Assembly: GCA_963922455.1 (NCBI GenBank)
Contig: CAWUIO010000006.1
Coordinates: forward strand, 1,255-65,254
Direction: 5' to 3'
Length of the DNA stretch: 64,000 bases
Origin: an uncultured Microscillaceae bacterium
GTDB taxonomy: Bacteria > Bacteroidota > Bacteroidia > Cytophagales > Microscillaceae
In this document: positions 2,297 through 63,196 of the stretch, one piece after another
Numbering within the stretch: position 1 is the first letter of the stretch
How the letters are laid out: each line of letters starts with the position of its first letter
Notes under the pieces: model-generated
Databases searched by the model: none
Told to the model about the DNA's origin: nothing
What the model saw: the letters and a program-made list of their open reading frames with translations, nothing else
Translations under genes and position numbers: made by a program

Positions 2297-3559
2297 TTAA
2301 CGGTCTACCTCGCCTAATACCAAATCCAGGGAGCCTACGATGGCTACCAAATCGGCAATCATGACACCCCGGCTTATTTCGGGTAAAATGGATAAATTAT
2401 TAAAGCAGCAGGAGCGGGCTTTGCACCGGATGGGAACATCCGACCGGCCATCGCTACGAAAGTAAAAGCCCAGCTCTCCTTTGGGGTTTTCGGCCCGAGC
2501 ATAAAACTCCATGGCTTTGGGGCGTATTTTCTTAGGCACGAGGGCCTGGGGGTCAAAATCAGGGCTTCGTTGGTGTTCTTTGCCCAACTTCTCCAAGCAC
2601 TGCTCCATGATGCGCACCGACTCATAACATTCCCGCAAACGGACCCAGGTGCGGTCCCAACAGTCTCCGAGGGTGCCCATAGCTCCTTCGCCAATAGGTA
2701 CTTCAAATTCTAAATCTGGATAAACCGAGTAGCCCTCTACCCGGCGTAAGTCATAACGCAAGCCTGAGGCCCGTAGAATAGGGCCACTCACGCCATAGTT
2801 AATCGCCATCTCCAGAGGAATGGGGCCTACCTTGCCGGTTCTTTGAATAAAGATTTTGTTCTGTATGAGTAACTCTTCCGACTCTTTAAGTTTGGGCTTT
2901 AAATAAGCGCAAAATTCCTGACAACGTTCTTCAAAACCCAGGGGAAGGTCATAAAAAAGGCCCCCAACCCAGATATAATTATATAGCATACGGGCCCCAC
3001 ACAGCCATTCCAGCATACGCAGGATATGTTCCCGGTCCCGCATCATCCACAAGAAGGGGGTTACGGCCCCAATATCAACCCCGTAGGTGCCCATCGCTAC
3101 AAAGTGGGAGGCGATGCGGTTCATTTCGGCTACTAGTACCCGGATATATTCCACCCGGGGGGGCAGCTTTCCGTCCAGGCCCATCATTTTTTCTATCCCC
3201 ATGACGAAGGCGTGCTCGGAGTTCATGGCCGCCACATAGTCCATGCGGTCTACGTAAGGAATAATTTGATTAAAGGGAAGGGATTCGGCGTGCTTTTCAA
3301 AACAGCGATGGAGGTAGCCCAAATGAGGGACTACTTCTTGAATATATTCCCCATCGGTCACGACTTCTAAACGTAGTACACCATGGGTGGAGGGGTGTTG
3401 CGGACCGATATTGAGGATCATCTGCCCTTCTCCCAACTCCTCGAGCGAATATTTTAAGGGCTCAGAACGGGCCATATGCCCCGGCTCGAAGGTGTATTCA
3501 ATTTGCGGAGTTTGGTGTCTTTGATCAGGGTCTGGCCCTAGGTCAAGTGTGTTTGGCAT
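2297..3559 (-). CDS. nuoD: NADH-quinone oxidoreductase subunit D
   Basis: ILNIGPQHPSTHGVLRLE, the HRCFEK-type motif and the C-terminal ...IVGSLDLVLGEVDR are NuoD hallmarks. Start moved to the ATG at 3559 (MPNTLDLG), giving about 420 aa. The upstream 61 codons of the ORF track look non-coding. Confidence 0.9.
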   Translation of the reverse strand: MPNTLDLGPDPDQRHQTPQIEYTFEPGHMARSEPLKYSLEELGEGQMILNIGPQHPSTHGVLRLEVVTDGEYIQEVVPHLGYLHRCFEKHAESLPFNQIIPYVDRMDYVAAMNSEHAFVMGIEKMMGLDGKLPPRVEYIRVLVAEMNRIASHFVAMGTYGVDIGAVTPFLWMMRDREHILRMLEWLCGARMLYNYIWVGGLFYDLPLGFEERCQEFCAYLKPKLKESEELLIQNKIFIQRTGKVGPIPLEMAINYGVSGPILRASGLRYDLRRVEGYSVYPDLEFEVPIGEGAMGTLGDCWDRTWVRLRECYESVRIMEQCLEKLGKEHQRSPDFDPQALVPKKIRPKAMEFYARAENPKGELGFYFRSDGRSDVPIRCKARSCCFNNLSILPEISRGVMIADLVAIVGSLDLVLGEVDR

Positions 3560-3776: not shown

Positions 3777-4607
3777 ATGTCAAAGTGCTTCAAAAAATAC
3801 CTGCTCTACTTTTTCATTTTGATTTTGGCCTTAGGTTGCCACGTAAGGTCGTACAATCATTATTTTAACGCCCAAAAGCTGTTGTATTTCCAAAAACCCG
3901 ATTCAGCTTTAAAGGAATTAAATCAATTGGAAGAACTCCAACCCGAATGGCCCCGGACCTACACTTTACGTAGTGAAGCGTATTCCATGATGGGAGATTA
4001 TCAAGCAGCCCTAGAGGATGTAAACAAAGCCCTTTCTTTGATACCAGATAATCCTCAAAAACAGGCAGAATTATTAACTTCACGGGCTTTTTTCCGTCAA
4101 AAAACGCTTGATTTAGAAGGAGCTGAACGAGATTATAAGGAAGCTAGCCGAGTAGCCCCCAAATATGTAAGTGCTTTCCTGGGCTTGGGTAATTTATATT
4201 TTCAGCAGAAACGATATGACCAGGCTATTGAAGCCTATGACCAGGCCATTGTGGTAAGACCCCATTTTACCGATGCCCTATTCAACCGAGCCATTGTGAA
4301 GTACATTCAAGGCAATTTTAGTGGGGCCATTGATGACTGCGACGTAGTCCTTAAAAAAGACTACAAGTATGATGCAGCCTTAAACTTCAGGGCTGTTCTC
4401 AAAATGCAATTAAATTTTTATAAGGGAGCCATCCGGGATTTGAACCGGGCCTTGGAATTAAATCCTCTGGCGGCACCTTACTATTACAATCGCTCCAGGT
4501 GTTACATGAAAATCAATAAATCTAGAAAAGCTTGCCGTGACTGGAAAAATGCTAAAAAATTTGGCTATTCTAGTATCGATCTTGATTTATCCATCCAATG
4601 TGACTAG
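3777..4607 (+). CDS. TPR-repeat lipoprotein
   Basis: Signal peptide with lipobox LALGC, followed by repeated TPR-like A/Y/L patterns. Confidence 0.75.
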   Translation: MSKCFKKYLLYFFILILALGCHVRSYNHYFNAQKLLYFQKPDSALKELNQLEELQPEWPRTYTLRSEAYSMMGDYQAALEDVNKALSLIPDNPQKQAELLTSRAFFRQKTLDLEGAERDYKEASRVAPKYVSAFLGLGNLYFQQKRYDQAIEAYDQAIVVRPHFTDALFNRAIVKYIQGNFSGAIDDCDVVLKKDYKYDAALNFRAVLKMQLNFYKGAIRDLNRALELNPLAAPYYYNRSRCYMKINKSRKACRDWKNAKKFGYSSIDLDLSIQCD

Positions 4608-9386: not shown

Positions 9387-9517
9387 GGGGCTGCCCCCGG
9401 CGATTTCCGAATCTTTCGGATAGCCAGGCCAGTGCCGCCGGGGTCGGGCTTTCGCTACTCGCTGCCTTTCCCCGCAAGGCCTACACGAGCTCAAACAGGC
9501 CGCTCTATCCCTCAGCC
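9387..9517 (-). repeat. Family-1 dispersed repeat, copy 2 (reverse)
   Basis: Same module as copy 1, but the stem arms are CCCCGGCG/CGCCGGGG instead of CCCGCGC/GCGCGGG. Lies in a divergent intergenic region. Confidence 0.9.
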
Positions 9518-9685
9518 GATGGGGAAGAGAGAGCAGAGAAGCGGGAGGAGAGATTTTGGAGGGAGGAGCCGGAAAGGGATTGCTAAGACCATGTGGGAAA
9601 ATAATACCCCACCGCCGCGAGGCCCTTATCTCGTCAATGCAAAAGATAGCTATATTTGCCTAGATAGTCTAGGATAAACCAAATC

Positions 9686-10322: not shown

Positions 10323-10433
10323 GTTTCAATCCTTGTTTTGGTGGAATAGGCTCGTGAATTTCGGACAAGCAAGCAATACTCGTCATCAGGATGGAGTTTC
10401 AATCCTTGTTTTGGTGGAATAGGCTCGTGAATT
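10323..10433. CRISPR. Orphan CRISPR-like mini-array (2 identical 38-nt repeats, 1 spacer of 35 nt)
   Basis: GTTTCAATCCTTGTTTTGGTGGAATAGGCTCGTGAATT occurs at 10323-10360 and 10396-10433. The 5' GTTTCAATCC is typical of CRISPR repeats. No cas genes are in the window. Confidence 0.4.
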
Positions 10434-10578: not shown

Positions 10579-10716
10579 CTTTAGGGATAGAGCGGCCTGT
10601 TTGAGCTCGTGGGGGCTTGTGCGTCATGGCAGCGAGTAGCGATAGCCCGGCCCGCGCAGGCACATAGGTTCACGGGATACCCCTTGATCTTGCGCGGGCA
10701 AGCCCCTCTTTTTATT
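10579..10716 (+). repeat. Family-1 dispersed repeat, copy 3 (forward)
   Basis: TTAGGGATAGAGCGGCCTGTTTGAGCTCGTGGGGG...GCCCGGCCCGCGC, then a 34-nt unique segment, then GCGCGGGCAAGCCCC. Confidence 0.85.
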
Positions 10717-12299: not shown

Positions 12300-12410
12300 G
12301 GGGCTTCCCCCGCTCCCCCCAAAGCGGGGGAGCGGGGTCGGGCTCTCGCTACTCGCTGCCTTTCCCCCCAGGCCCCTACGAGCTCAAACAGGCCGCTCCA
12401 TCCCTAAGCC
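12300..12410 (-). repeat. Family-1 dispersed repeat, copy 4 (reverse), short-cassette variant
   Basis: The conserved module is intact. The unique segment is replaced by a perfect 12-bp hairpin, CCCCGCTCCCCC-caaagc-GGGGGAGCGGGG. Confidence 0.9.
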
Positions 12411-12524
12411 ATCAGAAAGCCAAAATCTTCATAATAATCTACCTCAGGTTCTTTATGTCCATGGTTTTACTTAATTTTAGTAAAGATTATCTCTATTTTT
12501 CTTTTAGCTGGTAAGACTTTAAGG

Positions 12525-13349
12525 ATGATTTTTGAAAAGCTAGCACATAAGGCATTTGGGTTTAGTTTTGCGTATTTATTCCTATTGGTAGAACATACGG
12601 CCCTGATCGCCCAAGCCAAAACCCCGAGCATGATTTTGGGCGAGCCCAGGCCCGAAGAAATGGTGTATACGTCCCTATCAGAAGCCCAGTCGAAAGGGAT
12701 GGAGGTTTACAAGCTGCGCCTCGATTATCAAAGCAATGCCCCCTTGGCAGAGGTTGCCTGGGAACGCTTTCGTAATTTGCGCAGCCTTTCCTTGCGTCAC
12801 TGTCGTTTGAGCTCCCTCCCCCTCTCCATGGGACAGTTGCCTCGATTGGAAGTACTCAACCTGGGCAGCAACCCTGAGCTAGACGGGGTGGCTTTGCTGG
12901 AAGTACTCCGCCACCTGCCCCAACTCCGCCACTTGATTGTAGACTCTTGTGCTTTGCGCTACTTACCCGAAACAATTAGCCGGCTCTTGCCGCTCCGAGA
13001 GCTCAATGTCCACGGTAATCGCTTGTACGAATTGCCCGCGAGCCTATGGGAGATGCCCCACTTACAAAACTTGGATGCTTCGGGCAATTTGATCCAAAAT
13101 CTACGCTTGCCTGGTGAAGTTCAGGCTCCACTCCGCCGGGTGGAGCTTTCCGTGAACTTGCTCGATGGTATCCCGGGGGCCCTTTTGGCTTGTCCAAGCT
13201 TGGAAAAGCTGTACCTGGATTATACAAATATTCGGGAGCTGGGAGATTCGGTACCCGCTCGGGACAGGCCCCTCCAAGTGTTTCTTCGGGGAAATGATCT
13301 GCGGGGTACATTCCCCCCATCGGCTAGCGTAATTTGGCAGGTGGAGTGA
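12525..13349 (+). CDS. Secreted leucine-rich repeat (LRR) protein
   Basis: Signal peptide followed by about 8 units of LxxLxLxxNxLxxLP (LRSLSLRHCRLSSLP, LEVLNLGSNP, LRELNVHGNRLYELP and others). Confidence 0.85.
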   Translation: MIFEKLAHKAFGFSFAYLFLLVEHTALIAQAKTPSMILGEPRPEEMVYTSLSEAQSKGMEVYKLRLDYQSNAPLAEVAWERFRNLRSLSLRHCRLSSLPLSMGQLPRLEVLNLGSNPELDGVALLEVLRHLPQLRHLIVDSCALRYLPETISRLLPLRELNVHGNRLYELPASLWEMPHLQNLDASGNLIQNLRLPGEVQAPLRRVELSVNLLDGIPGALLACPSLEKLYLDYTNIRELGDSVPARDRPLQVFLRGNDLRGTFPPSASVIWQVE

Positions 13350-15778: not shown

Positions 15779-15905
15779 ATACAAGCCATTCAGGTTCTGG
15801 CTGGTTTGCGGTAAAGTAGCCTATCGGCTAGCCGTTCTGATAACTGTTATCTATTGAAAAGTTCGGGATGCCCCTTTGGAAAGTACACACATCAAGGGGA
15901 AACCT

Positions 15906-16036
15906 GGAGCTTGCCCGCGCCAGAAAGTTAAGTTTTCTAACAAACATAGAGCGGCGGGCGCGGGCCGGGCTCTCGCTACTCGCCTGCCCCCCGCTAGGCC
16001 CTTTCGGGCTCAAACAGGCCGCTCCATCCCTAAGCC
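15906..16036 (-). repeat. Family-1 dispersed repeat, copy 6 (reverse)
   Basis: GAGCTTGCCCGCGC, then a 37-nt unique segment, then GCGCGGGCCGGGCTCTCGCTACTCGCCTGCC...CTCAAACAGGCCGCTCCATCCCTAAGCC. Confidence 0.9.
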
Positions 16037-16181
16037 TAAGAAGAAGAGAGAGCAGTGAACAGAGATTTGGGTTATGGAGCCGGGAACCCCATCAGTACAA
16101 AATTAGCTTCGCTGGGCCCTCCTTGCTCGCTGCTAAACCAAGGGGCACTGAAAGGCTTGCTCGTTCACCCGCTAATTCGCG

Positions 16182-16297
16182 GCAAGCTAGCCTCAGGGCT
16201 GAAAGCGGGGACGCTTTCGGTAAAAGAAAAGGTCCAAGGACCGCGGCGCTTATCCTTGAACCAGATCAATTTTCTACATGCTTGGACTATATGGGGG
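16182..16297 (+). repeat. Family-2 117-bp hairpin-rich repeat, left copy
   Basis: GCAAGCTAGCCTCAGGGCTGAAAGCGGGGACGCTTTCGGTAAAAGAAAAGGTCCAAGGACCGCGGCG...CTTGGACTATATGGGGG. A near-identical direct copy lies at 20948-21064. Confidence 0.9.
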
Positions 16298-16686
16298 CTA
16301 AGGACTTAAAGAAAATCTATCAAGCGGATAGAAAAGAACAAGCAGAGGCAGCTTTACTAGAAGTAGAAGAAACCTGGGGAGCCAAATACCCCCATATCTT
16401 CAAGAGCTGGACGGAAAACTGGGAAACCTTATCTATTTTTTTTGATTTTCCCTCCGAGATCCGAAAAATGATTTATACCACCAATGTGATTGAAAATGTC
16501 AATCGGGTCATTAGAAAGTATACCAAAGGAAAAACTATATTTCCCAGTGATCAGGCGGTCACCAAATCGGTATATCTAGCTTTACAGCGTCTGAGTGAAA
16601 AATGGACGATGCCGCTAAGAAATTGGCAAAAAATTATTGCCCAGTTGGCTATACTCTATCCGGATAAAATTAAACTTGATATTTAA
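16291..16686 (+). mobile_element. IS256-family transposase, C-terminal third only (remnant)
   Basis: WGAKYPHIFKSWTENWETLSIFFDFPSEIRKMIYTTNVIENVNRVIRKYTK...KWTMPLRNWQKIIAQLAILY matches the conserved C-terminus of IS256/mutator-type transposases. The DDE core is absent. Confidence 0.8.
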
Positions 16687-16752
16687 CCATGTTTTTACAG
16701 ACTTTATGAAACATTATCCTGCTCATCGAACTGCTAGCTCTAGATTGAAAAA

Positions 16753-16770
16753 GCCCCGCATTCGCGAGGC
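16753..16770. terminator. Putative bidirectional terminator hairpin
   Basis: AAAAA-GCCCCGC-attc-GCGAGGC-TTTTATTTT, lying between the convergent IS remnant and the last immunity gene. The stem has one mismatch. Confidence 0.4.
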
Positions 16771-16781
16771 TTTTATTTTAA

Positions 16782-17201
16782 TTAATAGGTGTTTTTATCT
16801 AATTCAGAGTCAATTTTTGCTTCTAAAAATTCAACAGTAGCTACTTCCTTCTTATCCGGCTTTGGTCTGATTTTAATATCAAATACTTGTCCCATTGCCA
16901 TATGAATTTCACTTGTATACTTTACTCCTCCCATTTTGTATTTCACGTATGCCAATCGAAACTCTTCTGTTCTACCAAACAATTGCTTCTTTGGAATAAT
17001 CCCATATTGTTCAGGGTACATCTCTGTAACAAGGTCATTTTTATATTCTATCCTCTTTATTAGAGTCAAATACTTTAGCTGCTCCTTTACTAATAAAGAT
17101 TGATGTTCTGGTAGCTGCGAAATCAAATATTCAAAAACAGATTTTTCCAGATAAGTTAATTCACCTTTTTGAGGGTCCTTTATTCTCTTTTTCCAAAACA
17201 T
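16782..17201 (-). CDS. Putative immunity protein I4 (cognate to orphan tip T4)
   Basis: ATG lies 4 nt after the T4 stop. Small, AT-rich, with no signal peptide. The call is positional. Confidence 0.5.
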   Translation of the reverse strand: MFWKKRIKDPQKGELTYLEKSVFEYLISQLPEHQSLLVKEQLKYLTLIKRIEYKNDLVTEMYPEQYGIIPKKQLFGRTEEFRLAYVKYKMGGVKYTSEIHMAMGQVFDIKIRPKPDKKEVATVEFLEAKIDSELDKNTY

Positions 17202-17205
17202 AGGC

Positions 17206-17541
17206 CTACCTTCCAAACATGTTATAATTTAAATCGCCTCCTGGTACAAGTCGAAGCTTAATTTCACAAGGCAAGCGCCTGTATCTAAATGGATCATGAC
17301 CAGCATGTCTCAACGTGTTTGTCTTAATAACATTGAGCCTATTATTAACCATCCAGTTTGGCAAATTGTACTTTCTTTGAGCCGCCTGTGTAATCCATCT
17401 ATGTGAGTATTCTACTCTGACAGGGAATTTGGTTCCGTAAAATTTATGTGGAGTTTTTAGCGTAATGTTTCCAATCAATCCACCACCACCGTTTGCAGCT
17501 TTGAATTGAGAGAATGTCTTACCCCCCCTAGCGGCTACACT
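17206..17541 (-). CDS. Orphan toxin C-terminal module T4 (no own start codon)
   Basis: The frame opens right after the I3 stop and reads SVAARGGKTFSQFKAANGGGGLIGNITLK.... It begins with the shared junction GCCGCTAGGGGGG. Confidence 0.5.
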   Translation of the reverse strand, partial: SVAARGGKTFSQFKAANGGGGLIGNITLKTPHKFYGTKFPVRVEYSHRWITQAAQRKYNLPNWMVNNRLNVIKTNTLRHAGHDPFRYRRLPCEIKLRLVPGGDLNYNMFGR

Positions 17542-17546
17542 CTATT

Positions 17547-17852
17547 CTATTCCATACATTTTTTATACTTCAAAATCTCATCTTTCAAATTACCCTTACA
17601 TATTTCTATTTTGACCCCATTAATTTTATCAAACCCATGAGATTTTGCATCAAAATATAAAGCCACATTTTCAAAGAAGTATTCAAAACTTTCAAAATTT
17701 TTCTGTTCAAAGAGGTCTACTTCTTTGCGTTTGTTTGCATCATCTATGTACCAGTCTGGTCCTGATACACTAAAACCATGATTTACATTATCGTTTAACA
17801 AGGCTTGCTCTAAAGCTGGTATATACTGGTGAAAAAACTCTTTTTCATTCAT
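17547..17852 (-). CDS. Putative immunity protein I3
   Basis: 101 aa. ATG lies 11 nt after the T3 stop. Acidic, cytoplasmic-looking protein. Confidence 0.5.
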   Translation of the reverse strand: MNEKEFFHQYIPALEQALLNDNVNHGFSVSGPDWYIDDANKRKEVDLFEQKNFESFEYFFENVALYFDAKSHGFDKINGVKIEICKGNLKDEILKYKKCME

Positions 17853-17863
17853 AACCGATCAGT

Positions 17864-18145
17864 TTAAAATCTATCCCAAAAACTTTTGTCATTCCATCCT
17901 TTTTCCCACGGTCTGTGTCTATGAAGATTATTTCCTCTACCTCTATGATAGTGAAGGAGTTTTTTGTTTTGTAAAGGCTTAGGAATAGTCATAGAATTAC
18001 TTGCTTTAGAGGCTTGTCCTAATTTATGAAAATCTAACCTTGGTTTTGCTCCATAACCAGAACCTTTAGAAATTGTAAAACCATTTATCTTTCCGCCACT
18101 GGCTCGTAACCATTTGAATTGAGGTACCCACTTAGCGGCGTTATT
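17864..18145 (-). CDS. Orphan toxin C-terminal module T3 (absent from the ORF track because it has no start codon)
   Basis: My own translation is NNAAKWVPQFKWLRASGGKINGF...KKLLHYHRGRGNNLHRHRPWEKGWNDKSFWDRF*. It has a degenerate junction GCCGCTAAGTGGG and shares the HYHxGRG motif with T2. Confidence 0.45.
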   Translation of the reverse strand, partial: NNAAKWVPQFKWLRASGGKINGFTISKGSGYGAKPRLDFHKLGQASKASNSMTIPKPLQNKKLLHYHRGRGNNLHRHRPWEKGWNDKSFWDRF

Positions 18146-18668
18146 TTATCTCCTCTAGCAATAACAAGTTATTTTCATAGTCATCAATAGATAAATTATA
18201 CTTAGGGCTAGTAGATAGCTCTCCGGTTATTAAACATTCAATTTTCTTTGTACTCTGATCGAAATAGAAGAAACCTGAAGACAAAAGCAACTCATCGTTA
18301 CAATAAAACTCGATTTGCACCAAATACTTTGCTGCATTGAATAGATTGATTCCTTTCCTCTTCCAGCCATATATCTTGATTTCCGATATTGCTTTATTCT
18401 CAAATTTTGAAATGGGTTTTTCAGAATATCTGTTCTTTTCAAATTTTAAATCTAAATTTCCTTCACCATAAAAATGAGGAATATCATCTGTGGTAATTTC
18501 TACTGTCTGATCATCCGAGAAATATATCCTTAGCTCTTCCCCAAATAGTGTGCTTTCGTTTTCATCATCTAAAATCTGACCATCCACACTAACAGCTAAT
18601 ATTAATCTTTGAAGTAATGGTTTTAGCTGTTTTGAGATTTTATCTATAATCTTTTCCATAAGCTCCAC
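18141..18668 (-). CDS. Putative immunity protein I2
   Basis: 175 aa. ATG lies 5 nt after the T2 stop. Confidence 0.5.
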   Translation of the reverse strand: MELMEKIIDKISKQLKPLLQRLILAVSVDGQILDDENESTLFGEELRIYFSDDQTVEITTDDIPHFYGEGNLDLKFEKNRYSEKPISKFENKAISEIKIYGWKRKGINLFNAAKYLVQIEFYCNDELLLSSGFFYFDQSTKKIECLITGELSTSPKYNLSIDDYENNLLLLEEIK

Positions 18669-18673
18669 TTAAT

Positions 18674-19000
18674 TTAATAAGGTCCTAACCAACCGTTTCT
18701 TAATTGAGACCCATTAAGAATCTTGTTCCCTGAGCCGAATTGCATATGGTGGGCTCCAGTTTTCCCTCGACCCCAGTGATAATGCCAGAATTTCTGATTG
18801 ATAGGTGTTTGCCCTGGTTTTCTTAATACCCAATTATGTCGATCAATCGCACCTTGGAATTTACCATATTTAAACCCTATTACTCTGTGCCCAGACATGC
18901 CTGGTGCCTGAACTTTCGACATTACTGAAAATTGAAACTTCTTTCCAACATTGAAATTACCGCCCCATTTTGGCAATCTCACCCCCCTAGCGGTTTCTCT
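18674..19000 (-). CDS. Orphan toxin C-terminal module T2
   Basis: The frame opens after an in-frame stop just downstream of the I1 stop and reads RETARGVRLPKWGGNFNVGKK...FWHYHWGRGKTGAHHMQFGSG.... Junction is ACCGCTAGGGGGG. Confidence 0.5.
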   Translation of the reverse strand, partial: RETARGVRLPKWGGNFNVGKKFQFSVMSKVQAPGMSGHRVIGFKYGKFQGAIDRHNWVLRKPGQTPINQKFWHYHWGRGKTGAHHMQFGSGNKILNGSQLRNGWLGPY

Positions 19001-19007
19001 CTACACT

Positions 19008-19394
19008 CTATTCAACTTTATAAATTTTACCCGAAAACTTTAGCTTATTTTCATCAATCATTTTATTTAAGAATTTTTCAACCAAATCTTCATTTGTCCC
19101 AGCAAGTTTATCTTTTAAGAAAAGATAAAAACTCCAAGAAGTAAACCCTATCTCACCATCTTCAAACTCAATGTCTACTTCAAAATTTTTAAATTGGAAA
19201 CCACAACCATTACCATGAAATGCATAACCAGTAACAGACGAACCTTTCAAATCATAATTTCTGGCAGGAATTGTTCCGGAATTTTTCATCTTCAAATAAT
19301 CACCATCTCCAAAATTATTTTTTAGAAAAAGAATTATCTGGTTAATTAAAAAGCAATAATCTTTAAAAAAAACATCTATTCCATTCATAATCAT
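19008..19394 (-). CDS. Putative immunity protein I1
   Basis: 128 aa. Its ATG overlaps the T1 stop (TAATG). Confidence 0.5.
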   Translation of the reverse strand: MIMNGIDVFFKDYCFLINQIILFLKNNFGDGDYLKMKNSGTIPARNYDLKGSSVTGYAFHGNGCGFQFKNFEVDIEFEDGEIGFTSWSFYLFLKDKLAGTNEDLVEKFLNKMIDENKLKFSGKIYKVE

Positions 19395-19732
19395 TATCTT
19401 AAAAGCATTTGAAGCATTCTACCATCAACCTTAAAGGAACTCTGAGCCGCTCTTTGAGCGGCCATCTGTAGTTCAAAAACGTTAGCATAGTTTCCAGGAG
19501 ATGACAAATAATTTACTGGGACTTTTTGACCAAGACGCATCGCTGCATGAGCTCTGTGATGGCCATTAATGATATAATCTTTGCCTCCATGTCTAAAGAC
19601 ATCAATTGGTTTTTGGATACCTGTAGACTTTGCAGATTTCATGATTTCAGCAACACTTCTTGTACTAACTTTCCAAGTCCTACCTACCTCTGTTCTTATC
19701 AATGAACTTGGATTCACCCCCCTAGCGGCAAC
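19394..19732 (-). CDS. Orphan toxin C-terminal module T1, ParB-like nuclease domain
   Basis: Continues in the same frame directly after the I0 stop (TAA-GTT-GCC-GCT-AGG-GGG). PIDVFRHGGKDYIINGHHRAHAAMRLGQKVPV matches the ParB/Srx DGHHR core. Confidence 0.55.
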   Translation of the reverse strand, partial: VAARGVNPSSLIRTEVGRTWKVSTRSVAEIMKSAKSTGIQKPIDVFRHGGKDYIINGHHRAHAAMRLGQKVPVNYLSSPGNYANVFELQMAAQRAAQSSFKVDGRMLQMLLR

Positions 19733-20188
19733 TTACGTCAGCTTACCATAAAAAGATCCATATTCACCATCCTTAAAGTAGAACTCATCTTCGTCAGCTC
19801 CGTCAGGTTGACACGTAATCATATCAAAATGATAGGTCAACCCAAAATCTTTAGCCCAAGCTATTAACATATTCAGAGATTCTTTGTGTGTTTCTAAATG
19901 AACATCTTTTAAATCAAGAAAGAACAATAACTCTATTTTTTCATTGTCTAAAACAAGGTTTACAAAAACATTTGACACTGAATTCAATTTAAAAGAATCA
20001 AAAGCTATGTCAACATATTCACTACTTTTTAAAAGGTTGATAATAAATCCGTATTCATTATTTTCTGCTTCAGGAAAATTAAACCTTACTCGGCCACTCT
20101 TAGAAAGTAAATCCTTCAAAAACTGAAAGTTAACTTTAGAGATAATCCCTGTGAAAATAATTTCCGTCAAAGTCAAAACATTTTTCAT
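19733..20188 (-). CDS. Putative immunity protein I0
   Basis: 151 aa. ATG lies 2 nt after the stop of the T0 tip. Confidence 0.5.
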   Translation of the reverse strand: MKNVLTLTEIIFTGIISKVNFQFLKDLLSKSGRVRFNFPEAENNEYGFIINLLKSSEYVDIAFDSFKLNSVSNVFVNLVLDNEKIELLFFLDLKDVHLETHKESLNMLIAWAKDFGLTYHFDMITCQPDGADEDEFYFKDGEYGSFYGKLT

Positions 20189-20190
20189 AA

Positions 20191-20805
20191 CTAATCTAAA
20201 AAGCCTTTAAACTGCCAGTTTTCTTGAAATCTAATTCCTCTGCCATCAGGTAATCTCTTTTCAATAAACCCACCTACTCGTTTGAATTTTCCTGGTGCTC
20301 GCCAGATTTCTTGAAAAGTTTTATAGCCCGCTTGATTGAATGTTGCAGGATTCAATTTTGCTCCCGCAGGTATGTTACTTCCCCATGCTGGGTTTCCTCT
20401 TCCAAAGTGTTTCTGAAATTAGTAACCGACTTCACTGAACCCTCTTTTGCCAGTTCGGTTTGCTAAGGCTGATCCTACTGCCTTAAATGTATTGGCACTT
20501 GCTCCCCTAGGGCCAAATGGATTGAACCTTCTTTTGATCTTGTTTAGTAAATTTTTACCCTTATTCAAAAATTTACCCCCAGTAGCAAATACTCCTAATA
20601 CGGGCACAGCCGCCAATCCAGAACCAAGCGCTGAACCATAATCCCCTCTGGCTGTATATATAAATGCATTTGTAATATCCGGGATAATTCCAATAGCTGG
20701 TACGAGTCCTGCAAAATCCAAGCTTGATTGAAATGCATCTAGGGCTTTTCGCCAGAAATCTCCCAACTGGCGCAAGCATAAGCATAGCGCTGCTTGTGCC
20801 TGGTC
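20191..20805 (-). pseudogene. Remnant of a polymorphic toxin: pre-toxin TG (PT-TG)-like region plus C-terminal tip T0; 5'-truncated, with an internal in-frame TAA
   Basis: LDFAGLVPAIGIIPDITNAFIYTARGDYGSALGSGLAAVPVLGVFATGGKF is PT-TG-like. TAA at 20419-20421 is followed in frame by FQKHFGRGNPAWG...RFQENWQFKGFLD*. No N-terminal secretion or repeat region is present. Confidence 0.55.
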
Positions 20806-20947
20806 TTAGCGACAGCCTCCCCACTGTCGGCCGAAGGGAAGGGAGCTTGGGGCATATCATCTATCCTTACAATTTTCTCTTTAGGTTTACTTCCTCCATT
20901 CATCCCATTTCCCAAAGACTTTTTGGCTCGGGATGACCTAGGTCGCA

Positions 20948-21064
20948 GCAAGCTAGCCTCAGGGCTGAAAGCGGGGACGCTTTCGGTAAAAGAAAACGTC
21001 CAAGGGCCGCGGCGTTTATCCTGGAACCAGGTCTATTTTTTTACAGGCTTGGACTAGGTGGGGG
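20948..21064 (+). repeat. Family-2 117-bp hairpin-rich repeat, right copy
   Basis: Direct repeat of 16182-16297 with a handful of substitutions. It abuts the truncation point of the toxin remnant. Confidence 0.9.
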
Positions 21065-21093
21065 AACAAACCAACTTCACATTTCCTCCCCCT

Positions 21094-21222
21094 GGCTTAG
21101 GGATAGAGCCTCTGTTTGAGCCCGCCGGGGGCATGCGGGTGAGCCGGCGAGTGGCGAAAGCCCGGCCCGCGCAGGCACTTGTGGACTCCCATTTCGCCTC
21201 TCCCATTGCGCGGGCAAGCCCC
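21094..21222 (+). repeat. Family-1 dispersed repeat, copy 7 (forward), mosaic of subfamilies A and B
   Basis: GGCTTAGGGATAGAGCCTCTGTTTGAGCCCGCCGGGGGCATGCGGGTGAGCCGGCGAGTGGCGAAAGCCCGGCCCGCGC, then a 35-nt unique segment, then GCGCGGGCAAGCCCC. Confidence 0.85.
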
Positions 21223-21454: not shown

Positions 21455-21468
21455 AAAAAATGAACTTG

Positions 21469-21542
21469 TGACCTTGCTAGGATTCAAACCTAGAACCTTC
21501 TGATCCGTAGTCAGATGCTCTATTCAGTTGAGCTACAAGGCC
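21469..21542 (-). tRNA. tRNA-Arg (anticodon ACG)
   Basis: Folded by hand. Acceptor GGCCTTG/CAAGGTC, D arm GCTC...GAGC, anticodon stem TCTGA/TCAGA with loop CTACGGA, T arm CTAGG-TTTGAAT-CCTAG. No encoded CCA. Confidence 0.85.
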
Positions 21543-21621: not shown

Positions 21622-22572
21622 CTATTTTTTAAAAAAATTCAGCATAAGGGCTTTCACATCCTCCGCTTTTTCCCAAATGAGTAAATGGCCGGTCTCTTCC
21701 ATCAGGTGCAATTCTCCCTGGGGCAGGTGACTAGCCGCCTCCTGGGCTAGGGTTTCCGTTTTTAGACTGGGGTTAAAGTAGGGGTTGGGGATCAATTTAT
21801 CCTCTTTCCCAAAAATCAGTAAGGTAGGCACTTTTATATTGGGCAATTCTGCTTGCATGGGGTCTGCCAACATAGCTTTGACCGACTCAGCAATGGCGTG
21901 GGCATAGCCCGAAAAGTCGGCTTTGGATTTAAACCGAATACGGTCTTCAATAAGGAATTGGGCATCCTCAGGCATTTTATAGAAGGTATTCTCGATGTCC
22001 GTGCGGATTTTGGCATCAGAGGTGCGCTCAATCTGCCCCGTATTAAAAAAATTACCCACCAAGCTTGCCTGACTGGCCGTAAAGGTTTCTAAACCAGAGG
22101 GGGCCAAGAGTACCAAGGCCGAAACCCGGTCGGGATGGTCCAGGGCGCTACGCATCGCCACCTGCCCCCCTAGGGAATGCCCTACAAAAATAACCTGATC
22201 CAGCTTGAGATGACTAAGCAAGGCATCTACACAATCGGCGTAAAAACGAATGCTATAGGCATATTTATCTTTGCCTGACAAGCCGTGGCCGGGCAGGTCT
22301 AATGCCACACAGCGATAGCTACTTTTTAGGCTATCTTGTAATTTTTGCCACACCGGGATGTAATTGCCCAAACCGTGGATAAATACCAAGGTTTGCTCCC
22401 CTTCTTGGCTATCGGTATACGCTACTTTAATTCCGTCTTGAAATGTAAAATAAGATACCCTGTCCACATAGCGGTCTTCCAGGTTTTGGGCCAAAAGCGA
22501 TACGCTTAGGAGGTGTAGACTGAGGGTGATGAACCCGTACCGGGATAAGCAACTTGAGATATAGGTGTACAT
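21622..22572 (-). CDS. Alpha/beta hydrolase fold protein (secreted)
   Basis: HGLGNY oxyanion region, nucleophile elbow GHSLGG, and a C-terminal ETGHLL histidine motif. Confidence 0.85.
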   Translation of the reverse strand: MYTYISSCLSRYGFITLSLHLLSVSLLAQNLEDRYVDRVSYFTFQDGIKVAYTDSQEGEQTLVFIHGLGNYIPVWQKLQDSLKSSYRCVALDLPGHGLSGKDKYAYSIRFYADCVDALLSHLKLDQVIFVGHSLGGQVAMRSALDHPDRVSALVLLAPSGLETFTASQASLVGNFFNTGQIERTSDAKIRTDIENTFYKMPEDAQFLIEDRIRFKSKADFSGYAHAIAESVKAMLADPMQAELPNIKVPTLLIFGKEDKLIPNPYFNPSLKTETLAQEAASHLPQGELHLMEETGHLLIWEKAEDVKALMLNFFKK

Positions 22573-29730: not shown

Positions 29731-29860
29731 GGGGCTTCCCCGCGCCAAAGGAGGCACTACCCATTTGCCCTTCGGTAGCCGCGCGGGTCGGGCTTTCGCT
29801 ACTCGCTGCCTTTCCCCGCTAGGCCTGCACGAGCTCAAACAGGCCGCTCTATCCCTAAGC
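29731..29860 (-). repeat. Family-1 dispersed repeat, copy 9 (reverse)
   Basis: GGGGCTTCCCCGCGC, then a 35-nt unique segment, then GCGCGGGTCGGGCTTTCGCTACTCGCTGCCTTTCCCC...CTCTATCCCTAAGC. Confidence 0.9.
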
Positions 29861-38779: not shown

Positions 38780-38909
38780 GGGGCTGCCCCCGGCGATGGT
38801 CCTCTACTGCCCAACAAGTTCTCAAGTACCGCCGGGGTCGGGCTTTCGCGACTCGCCGGCCAGCGCACAAACCAGCGGCGGGCTCAAACAAACGCTCTAT
38901 CCCTCAGCC
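38780..38909 (-). repeat. Family-1 dispersed repeat, copy 11 (reverse)
   Basis: GGGGCTGCCCCCGGCG, then a unique segment of about 35 nt, then CGCCGGGGTCGGGCTTTCGCGACTCGCC...CTCTATCCCTCAGCC. Same stem variant as copy 2. Confidence 0.85.
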
Positions 38910-39146: not shown

Positions 39147-39277
39147 AGCTTAGGGATAGAGCGGCATGTTTGAGCTCGTGCAGGCCTGGTGGGGAAAGGC
39201 AGCGAGTAGCGAAAGCCCGACCCGCGCGGCAACAGATGGGCCCATGGCTAGTACCTGCCTTAGCGCGGGGAAGCCCC
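39147..39277 (+). repeat. Family-1 dispersed repeat, copy 12 (forward)
   Basis: AGCTTAGGGATAGAGCGGCATGTTTGAGCTCGTGCAGGCC...GCCCGACCCGCGC, then a 35-nt unique segment, then GCGCGGGGAAGCCCC. Faces copy 11. Confidence 0.9.
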
Positions 39278-46722: not shown

Positions 46723-46852
46723 GGGGCTTGCCCGCGCTAGAGGGGCTTGTATCCAAATTATACATACTACCCAGCGCGGGCCGGGCTTTCGCTACTCGCC
46801 TGCCTCCCGCCGGGCCCTCACGGGCTCAAACAGGCCGCTCTATCCCTAAGCC
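46723..46852 (-). repeat. Family-1 dispersed repeat, copy 13 (reverse)
   Basis: GGGGCTTGCCCGCGC, then a 36-nt unique segment (it starts with a duplicate of TAGAGGGGCTTG), then GCGCGGGCCGGGCTTTCGCTACTCGCC...CTCTATCCCTAAGCC. Confidence 0.9.
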
Positions 46853-46958
46853 AATACTTACTTGGGTCATAGAACCCTCCGGTATAAGCCCCGTGACAAA
46901 GGGAAATAAAAAAAGTGCCCCCTGAAAACAGAGGGCGCTCCCAATTCTTTTCTAAAAT

Positions 46959-57061: not shown

Positions 57062-57195
57062 GGGGCTTGCCCGCGCCAGATAAAGTGATTTCCCATAAGT
57101 AAACAGATTGCCTGCGCGGGCCGGGCTAGGCTGCCGAGCCGGCTCACCCGCATCCAGCGGCGGTCTCGGCCCATTCGGGCGCCTATCCCTAAGCC
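57062..57195 (-). repeat. Family-1 dispersed repeat, copy 15 (reverse), subfamily B
   Basis: GGGGCTTGCCCGCGC, then a 37-nt unique segment, then GCGCGGGCCGGGCTAGGCTGCCGAGCCGGCTCACCCGCATCCAGCGGCGGTCTCGG...CCTATCCCTAAGCC. Confidence 0.85.
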
Positions 57196-57426
57196 AAACA
57201 GGAAGAGAGAAGAGAAAGTAGGAACTAGCGACCCATTGCTTGCTTCACCCTCCCTTTCCCCTCTCTCTTCTCTCTTCTCTATTCTCTGCTCTCAAGAGCC
57301 TACCCATGACATTATTTGTAAAACGCTTTATTAGGTATTTCACGGGAAAAACGTGTCTACTCTTAGGTTTTGATCGGCATCCTTAGCATATTTAACCTTT
57401 CTCTTATGTATACAAGCTGCTTAAGG

Positions 57427-62927: not shown

Positions 62928-63064
62928 AATTTTAATTCTTTGCCCCCATATACAGTATAGGTATGGAGAAGAATTGGAAACGATAAAATTAGCCCCCAAG
63001 CCTGTTTAAACAATCGTTTTCAACTCAAAGCCCCGGTCCTTTCTAAACGCGCCCTTCTTTCTTT

Positions 63065-63196
63065 GGCTTAGGGATGGAGCGGCATGTTTGAGCTCGTAGG
63101 GGCCTGTGGGGAAAGGCAGCGAGTAGCGAGAGCCCGGCCCGCGCTGGCACTATTTGTACTAAGCTAATACAAAAGGTACGGGCGCGGGCAAGCCCC
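63065..63196 (+). repeat. Family-1 dispersed repeat, copy 16 (forward)
   Basis: GGCTTAGGGATGGAGCGGCATGTTTGAGCTCGTAGGGGCC...GCCCGGCCCGCGC, then a 37-nt unique segment, then GCGCGGGCAAGCCCC. Confidence 0.9.

Follow-up and report, generated by a model that had tools for sequence, protein, structure and literature searches.

A four-codon word at the seam between constant region and toxin tip in an array of Rhs-type orphan cassettes from Bacteroidota

Polymorphic toxins diversify through tip swapping, and orphan arrays of such toxins, among them those of the Rhs type, are a known kind of system (PMC3482391, PMC4436062, PMC3967940). The orphan rhs-CT/rhsI modules of S. Typhimurium LT2 are C-terminal tips with cognate immunity genes set in arrays, are found either apart from a full-length Rhs gene or downstream of it, and supply tips that are swapped in frame onto the constant body (PMC3967940, PMC4436062). 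The textbook picture of this exchange needs a long homologous stretch in each orphan. Here we describe a 64,000-nucleotide (nt) stretch of DNA from an uncultured Microscillaceae bacterium (contig CAWUIO010000006.1; hereafter the window) with an array of this layout, in which the homology retained is a four-codon word. We call this word J (GCY GCT ARG KGG, coding [A/T]-A-[K/R]-[G/W]), and consider it likely that the constant pre-toxin part of these toxins ends with J as its final three to four codons, and that J is an in-frame swap seam.

Downstream of tRNA-Arg, the minus strand carries five toxin-immunity cassettes of the Rhs type in a low-GC array (30-37%, against 45-55% around it). In minus-strand order, an alpha/beta hydrolase gene, the tRNA-Arg gene and about 690 nt of non-coding sequence precede five tips, T0 to T4, each followed by its immunity gene, I0 to I4, and the array closes with a terminator hairpin (Table 1). 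The four cassettes headed by J, each made up of J, a tip and an immunity gene, are intact, lie head to tail, and have neither a start codon nor a trafficking region.

The exact 12-mer CCCCCCTAGCGG is present on the plus strand at 17523-17534, 18982-18993 and 19717-19728, with no other copy on either strand of the 64 kb, and it was absent from 100 dinucleotide-preserving shuffles (mean 0.00, maximum 0). The initial annotation of this DNA had noticed the repeated word at the 5' edge of the orphan tips, at coordinates that proved to be off by one base, and had named as a possible refutation that it might be a common word; with only three copies in the window, it is not. The extra C reported for the T4 copy is real, at 17522, and corresponds to seven G on the minus strand, and the degenerate copy said to head T3 was also recovered (CCCACTTAGCGGC in plus-strand letters, 18127-18139). 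The flanks of the copies are unrelated in general, as had been claimed, except that the T2 and T4 seams also have about 13 decayed nt upstream in common (GAATAGAGTGTAG) and that the T2 tip is a paralogue of T3.

Read on the minus strand, all four copies of J are in frame with the tip open reading frame (ORF) downstream. The seam codons are GCC GCT AGG GGG GTG (AARGV) for T1, ACC GCT AGG GGG GTG (TARGV) for T2, GCC GCT AAG TGG GTA (AAKWV) for T3 and GCC GCT AGG GGG GGT (AARGG, then K) for T4, and every copy of J begins 1-17 nt past the stop codon that ends the immunity gene before it. Because the peptide [AT]A[KR][GW] occurs only once in 14,376 amino acids (aa) of other ORFs in the window, where it is coded by GCCGCCAAAGGA, and because AGG makes up 9% of Arg codons in the other genes (GCT makes up 20% of Ala codons), the DNA identity of the J copies is not due to codon usage. 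On the minus strand the seam reads TAGGGGGGTGA, and its other two frames hold the stops TAG and TGA (17522-17535, 18982-18994 and 19717-19729).

The 11 nt at the head of T4 (AATAGAGTGTA) are the same as the tail after I1, which argues that tail and J were duplicated together in a rearrangement of the array. Compared over 17535-17562 and 19001-19028, the 11-13 nt before the T4 seam (GAATAGAATAGAGTGTA) repeat the I1 stop and tail (GAATAGAGTGTA); the gene actually upstream of the T4 seam is I3, not I1, and a GAATA/GAATA local duplication lies at the join. A 17-nt inverted pair at 16604/20804 that holds the J-like GCCGCTAAG was set aside, as it is at chance level among 76 such pairs.

The initial annotation had given J a role like that of VENN or DPxGL and had proposed a search for full-length toxins in which the motif precedes divergent tips. 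That search found such cases in the toxin P0190, in Echinicola pacifica, in the locus pair L004/L006 and in L005 (proteins and fetched loci are given by our P and L numbers), and these full-length or longer relatives show that J is the boundary between constant and variable parts. P0190, encoded in L063, is a 3984-aa Rhs toxin with a TIGR03696 Rhs_assc_core match at residues 3649-3715 and the end …GGRVFGMF-TARG-VNPSSLIRTE…; T1 is at least 90% identical to its C-terminus. At the DNA level, window positions 19726-19003 match L063 21623-22346 with 89.6% identity over 724 nt, a block that comprises J, T1, I1 and the 5 nt that follow the I1 stop; beyond either end the sequences are unrelated. A second cassette starts in L063 6 nt past the stop of the I1 homologue with GCCGTTAAG (AVKS) and has J alone as its head.

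The T2-I2 cassette gives a second block, this one ending at J on both sides. Window positions 18993-18128 match E. pacifica L064 2238-3104 with 91.6% identity over 867 nt, from J through T2 and I2 to the next J inclusive, with unrelated DNA on both outer sides. Upstream of this block E. pacifica has a remnant of a constant region, …LGEKILKSSASLADD-AASG- (SSASLADD-AASG-ARLPNWGG). The shared second J, GCCGCTAAGGGG, is followed there by a different tip and is a J-only head, at position 3093 after the immunity stop, and a third J follows a second copy of the remnant (…SSASLADD-AAKG-G). J-only orphan heads directly after immunity stops thus occur in two further genomes, E. pacifica and L063. The third block came from L061, found via a member of the 90% cluster of I4: T4-I4 is about 97% identical there from J to just past the terminator, and the frame upstream of J remains open as far as the contig reaches (KAGGKILGRTAARWGKTF…; …TAARWG). 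Across these alignments, homology blocks start at J and stop either at the following J or just past the immunity gene, and the J-bounded cassette of J, tip and immunity gene is the unit common to different genomes. The same cassettes are fused in L063, L061 and E. pacifica and stored in the window, which is indirect evidence that orphan tips may recombine onto main genes.

Two further cases show one constant region before different tips. L004 and L006, from the same JGI metagenome, have a constant region of about 200 aa that is 94% identical, and tips that differ, one ParB-like and 76% identical to T1, the other an AHH nuclease; their DNAs are common through …GTGGTGGWG GCCGCTAAG and then diverge at once. 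The same nine bases, GCCGCTAAG, begin the J copy of T3 in the window and are present in E. pacifica. In L005, a main Rhs gene and two orphans share their constant region to …RIGGAAAKG and then have different tips; this locus also holds T3 and I3 homologues, and its AAKG codons (GCG GCG AAA GGA) are unlike those of the window.

Taken over all relatives, J ([A/T]A[K/R][G/W]) stands after at least five different constant-region ends and before at least nine different tips, and is more conserved than either flank. The DNA word GCCGCTA[AG]GGGG is the same in the window, E. pacifica and the unrelated JGI metagenome, and two constant-region ends with no relation to each other precede the 12-mer, …GCCGATGAT in E. 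pacifica and …GTGGTGGAG in L004. Most database homologues of the tips, by comparison, sit behind other constant regions that lack J: a GTDB scan with T3-type tips gave nine loci, none of them with AA[KR]G, which shows that the motif belongs to certain constant regions or toxin lineages and not to the tips. The lineage with J appears to consist of giant Rhs/YD-repeat polymorphic toxins from Bacteroidota (Cyclobacteriaceae-type). The P0152 constant region had no match in scans of GTDB genomes or of JGI metagenomes, and a metagenome scan with T1-type tips gave only two close matches, both of which end before the junction.

Seven-G runs lie at or near the points where orphan tips in the relatives lose frame (L064 4296-4320 and L063 about 22430-22445), and in E. 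pacifica one G fewer would bring an MSELQLV… tip in frame with AAKG. These runs could be slippage-prone tracts or assembly errors; the T4 seam of the window also has seven G, yet is in frame.

If J is a swap seam, cassettes would be inserted, displaced and re-activated through recombination within it. Such recombination might be a RecA-independent short-homology crossover or slippage between 12-nt direct repeats, or else homology-facilitated illegitimate recombination that is resolved at J, with the long constant region of a full-length gene, either incoming or resident, as its anchor. J would then be all that a displaced tip retains, and a stored tip would be joined in frame through a J-by-J deletion or through exchange with a full-length gene located elsewhere in the genome. 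The expected partner would be a large toxin gene with a constant region ending in GCCGCTAGGGGG or a near variant, and the peptide might double as a linker or processing site, as suggested for VENN. The initial annotation had called J a likely cassette-swapping site, a reading that finds support except in what it says of T0; the cassette breakpoints do fall at J, from which we infer that recombination takes place there, with a short-homology route as our best guess, while no recombinant molecule was observed.

Several other points weigh against a swap at J. At 12 nt, J is shorter than the homology that RecA-dependent recombination normally requires. The window shows no swap partner, as it contains no full-length toxin and T0 has no exact J. 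In L063, the J of the main gene (ACTGCTAGGGGA) and that of the orphan (GCCGTTAAGTCG) match at five of the first nine bases, so DNA identity between partners is not always kept. In S. Typhimurium, the stretch of homology between the described orphan and the main rhs gene is longer (PMC3967940). Finally, the AAKG of L005 is written in different codons, a sign of selection on the peptide.

That last point leads to the alternative that survives best, namely that J is kept for a peptide function, for instance as a flexible linker or as a site of processing for release of the tip, while recombination occurs wherever homology allows and DNA identity reflects recent descent. Pre-toxin motifs have been proposed as processing sites (PMC3482391, PMC4436062), and J is internal coding sequence of full-length toxins, where it varies as TARG, AASG, AARW and AAKT, all of which this account would accommodate together with the L005 codons. 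Selection on a peptide does not, however, apply to orphans that have no upstream coding sequence, unless they are later fused, and these keep J precise and in frame; nor does it readily account for identical rare-codon DNA after unrelated constant regions, or for between-genome blocks that end at J on both sides. We regard a peptide function in place of a seam as possible but tentative; a protein-level role for J, as linker or processing site, may coexist with the DNA role or replace it.

A bolder version of exchange at J makes it a portable DNA-level site, through which J-bounded, promoter-less cassettes would move between unrelated constant regions and between species in an integron-like manner, by means of an enzyme or a specialised short-homology pathway. 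The result would be a system of cassette exchange set inside a reading frame. We think this extension unlikely.

Quite unlikely, in our judgement, is that the cassettes are passive relics, decaying leftovers of displacement in which the 9-13 nt were retained by accident and J has no present role. The setting would suit such a history, since T0 is truncated and has a nonsense codon, no main gene is in the window, the array lies amid insertion sequence (IS) and miniature inverted-repeat transposable element (MITE) debris and 122-nt repeats, and one L063 orphan is frameshifted. Against it, all four tips and all the immunity genes are intact and, set beside their homologues, of full length, it is improbable that three independent cuts would fall on one and the same base, and the same architecture is present again in E. 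pacifica and L063.

The sharp edges of the conserved word on both sides, its conservation above that of the flanks and the bounding of every cassette by J on both sides might also recall the core site of a dedicated site-specific recombinase, in an integron-like system for tips, and by eye J forms an imperfect palindrome around CTAG (CCGCTAGGGG versus CCCCTAGCGG, 8/10). We consider such a system highly unlikely: neither in the window nor in L063 does the array have a tyrosine or serine recombinase gene as a neighbour, the only transposases in L064 and the window are of the IS66 and IS256 types, J differs between partners in L063, and there is no attC-like inverted repeat, with only 1-17 nt available from immunity stop to J.

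That J is a translation start for stand-alone tips, a Shine-Dalgarno-like TAGGGGGGTGA followed by GTG, is hardly credible, even though the ORF listing puts GTG starts inside J for T1 and T2 and UAGGGGGGUGA can pair with the 16S 3' end if G-U is allowed: the GTG follows the G run without any spacer, no in-frame start lies close to J in T3 or T4, J is internal to full-length toxin genes, and Bacteroidota rarely use Shine-Dalgarno sequences. Both the Shine-Dalgarno role and an attC-like role were rejected, and the 16S pairing potential of the seam is probably incidental.

The first toxin of the array stands apart from the J-headed cassettes. The initial annotation had taken T0 for the resident tip; it is instead a 5'-truncated pseudogene from another constant-region family, since it lacks its 5' part, has a nonsense codon and has a different pre-toxin domain. 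The in-frame TAA at 20416-20418 falls where P0117, its closest full homologue, has Gln (a CAA-to-TAA type change), and P0117 runs from an Rhs core end (…DPTGL) through a linker and the pre-toxin domain to the same tip. This tip matches a solved toxin, the 96-residue 'hemagglutinin' chain of PDB 6D7Y (6D7Y_A; E = 1.9e-11). An exhaustive search found 1537 database relatives of the pre-toxin domain, sited between Rhs, VgrG or MuF cores and C-terminal tips, while a word-indexed search with the T0 constant part had returned only the window's own protein; hmmscan gave no match to Pfam PT-TG (PF14449) in T0 or eight relatives.

The seam-like word that had been proposed for T0 (GPRGA) does exist as GGCCCTAGGGGAG, but it matches J at only 10 of 13 bases, a level that we estimate would be reached about 16 times by chance in the window, and P0117 does not back it. 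It lies in the linker, 8-13 aa before homology to the P0117 tip begins, and its position is what speaks for it, so that we regard it as doubtful. The suggested likeness of NTFKAVG in T0 to KTFSQFKAA in T4 likewise finds no support in P0117. Relatives of the T0-type pre-toxin domain (P0002-P0150) have a near-invariant …N-A-x-I-Y-A-A-R-G-D… in mid-domain, whose AARG we treat as a coincidence; a derivation of the seam from this IYAARGD was rejected, as nothing after J resembles the second half of the domain.

Tips and immunity genes form real cognate pairs, as their homologues show. For T1, T3 and T4, the homologous sequence makes up the C-terminal 90-110 residues of proteins that carry an Rhs core end. 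T1 has ParB_N and parB_part matches, both under the curated cut-offs, and a ParB-like tip is again the neighbour of a DUF6896 gene in L001 and L063. Several of the 17 homologues of T3 carry the source name 'RHS repeat-associated', and in the GTDB genomes of L008 and L014 a T3-type tip closes an open frame of about 2000 aa, which continues up to the edge of the fetched locus. The majority of such tips and immunity proteins have no Pfam match.

No full-length toxin gene is present in the window, where tblastn with 174 related proteins gives matches only at 17.1-20.8 kb. Upstream of the array lie the tRNA-Arg and hydrolase genes, not the full-length toxin expected of an adjacent main gene. The hairpin after I4 was missed by a simple terminator scan and found by folding, and homology to L061 stops just past it (16749..16774).

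Table 1. Positions of the seams, tips, immunity genes and bordering elements in the window
Feature	Position	Strand	Remarks
tRNA-Arg (ACG)	21468..21542	-	borders the island
122-nt direct repeat, right copy	20943..21064	+	with the left copy brackets the whole toxin array
T0, decayed Rhs toxin 3' end (pre-toxin domain, linker, tip)	20191..20817	-	5'-truncated
T0 seam-like word GGCCCTAGGGGAG (GPRG), doubtful	20502..20514	-	10/13 bases match J
I0, presumed T0 immunity gene	19733..20188	-	directly after T0 stop; no family match
Seam J1 GCCGCTAGGGGGG (AARG)	19717..19729	-	heads T1; exact 12-mer; homology to L063 toxin starts here
T1, ParB-like nuclease tip	19394..19732	-	intact; no own start codon upstream of seam
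I1, DUF6896 immunity gene	19008..19394	-	PF21837, E = 7e-13
Seam J2 ACCGCTAGGGGGG (TARG)	18982..18994	-	heads T2; exact 12-mer; homology to E. pacifica L064 starts here
T2 tip, HYHWGRG family	18674..19000	-	in cluster of at least 90% identity with E. pacifica P0192-P0194
I2 immunity gene	18141..18668	-	inside 91.6% block with E. pacifica; homologue L064 2573-3091
Seam J3 GCCGCTAAGTGGG (AAKW)	18127..18139	-	heads T3; degenerate; E. pacifica homology ends here
T3 tip, HYHRGRG family	17864..18139	-	60-89% identical to C-termini of 17 proteins
I3 immunity gene	17547..17852	-	homologue after T3-type tips in 11 fetched locus records
Seam J4 GCCGCTAGGGGGGG (AARGG)	17522..17535	-	heads T4; exact 12-mer plus one G; L061 homology starts here
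T4 tip	17206..17538	-	82% identical to C-terminus of P0151 (Rhs core end); about 97% nt identity to L061
I4 immunity gene	16782..17216	-	homologue after P0151 in L003; in cluster of at least 90% identity with P0186 in L061
Terminator hairpin closing the array	16749..16774	-	-16.8 kcal/mol, z = -3.9, then U run
122-nt direct repeat, left copy	16177..16297	+	90% identity to 20943-21064
MITE-like copies	21093-21175, 15958-16036, 46771-46853, 38817-38909, 10581-10707, 63064-63151		
MITE-like copies (rest)	1301-1382, 9431-9528, 29781-29860, 39148-39231, 12335-12411, 57109-57196		

The 122-nt direct repeats on either side suggest that the array arrived or was rearranged via recombination at this repeat. 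The left copy adjoins a C-terminal fragment of an IS256/Mutator transposase (16297-16686, Transposase_mut match), and an annotated ORF of 272 aa at 15868-16686 is a chimera of a MITE copy, the 122-nt repeat and the transposase fragment. The GC-rich MITE-like repeat, about 80-130 nt long (core TGGCTTAGGGATAGAGC…TTTGAGC…), is present in at least 12 copies in both orientations across the window and matches no Rfam family. The GC-rich stretch between the tRNA and T0, part of which is MITE-like repeat and 122-nt repeat, likewise gave no Rfam match. About 6 kb from the array, two clustered regularly interspaced short palindromic repeat (CRISPR) direct repeats were found on the minus strand at 10323-10432 (Rfam CRISPR-DR7, 41.8 bits each). 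A leucine-rich-repeat protein gene (LRR_8, LRR_4), an unusual presence in a bacterial chromosome neighbourhood, lies at 12525-13349 next to an iron-dependent repressor gene and mnmE.

If exchange truly takes place at J, this word would be a minimal joint that preserves the frame and lets tips be interchanged among toxin bodies and among species, and GCYGCTARGKGG just past an immunity stop would serve as a search handle for stored cassettes in Bacteroidota genomes. The initial annotation did not recognise AARGG as a described demarcation motif, and neither an AA[K/R]G junction nor its DNA word was found described in the literature; the seam motif thus appears to be undescribed.

Among known systems, Rhs orphans are the nearest. 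As in Rhs systems, the tips of the window are found on Rhs proteins (P0190, P0151 and P0117), and the cassettes, like other orphans, have no trafficking region and share a stretch with a full-length gene. Classic Rhs orphans keep a core stretch homologous to the main gene, whereas those of the window keep only the 9-13 nt of J. J is also distinct from the Rhs demarcation motif PxxxxDPxGL: in P0190, …LNDPAGD ends near residue 3715 and J lies near 3874, about 160 residues on.

Short motifs at the constant/variable boundary, with orphan CT/immunity modules downstream, are known from CdiA (VENN), from Burkholderia ((Q/E)LYN) and from Neisseria MafB (PMC4436062). The delivery proteins of CdiA and MafB are different, AA[K/R]G is shorter, and here the same DNA word follows several unrelated constant regions. 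No VENN was seen at the junctions read, and Pfam/NCBIfam scans of the relatives tested found no filamentous-haemagglutinin or two-partner secretion (TPS) family. The stand-alone cassettes of Zhang et al. 2012, solo tips with adjacent immunity genes that recombine with full-length toxins, resemble those of the window, but were set at the level of protein domains, with no such junction and no two-sided bounding (PMC3482391). Integron cassettes (attC/attI) are likewise promoter-less, arranged head to tail and shared as a unit from one short conserved site to the next, but here there is no integrase and no attC hairpin, and J lies inside a coding frame that must be preserved. The array thus differs from the known cases in its minimal retained homology, in having the same word on both sides of a cassette, and in the presence of that word behind unrelated constant regions.

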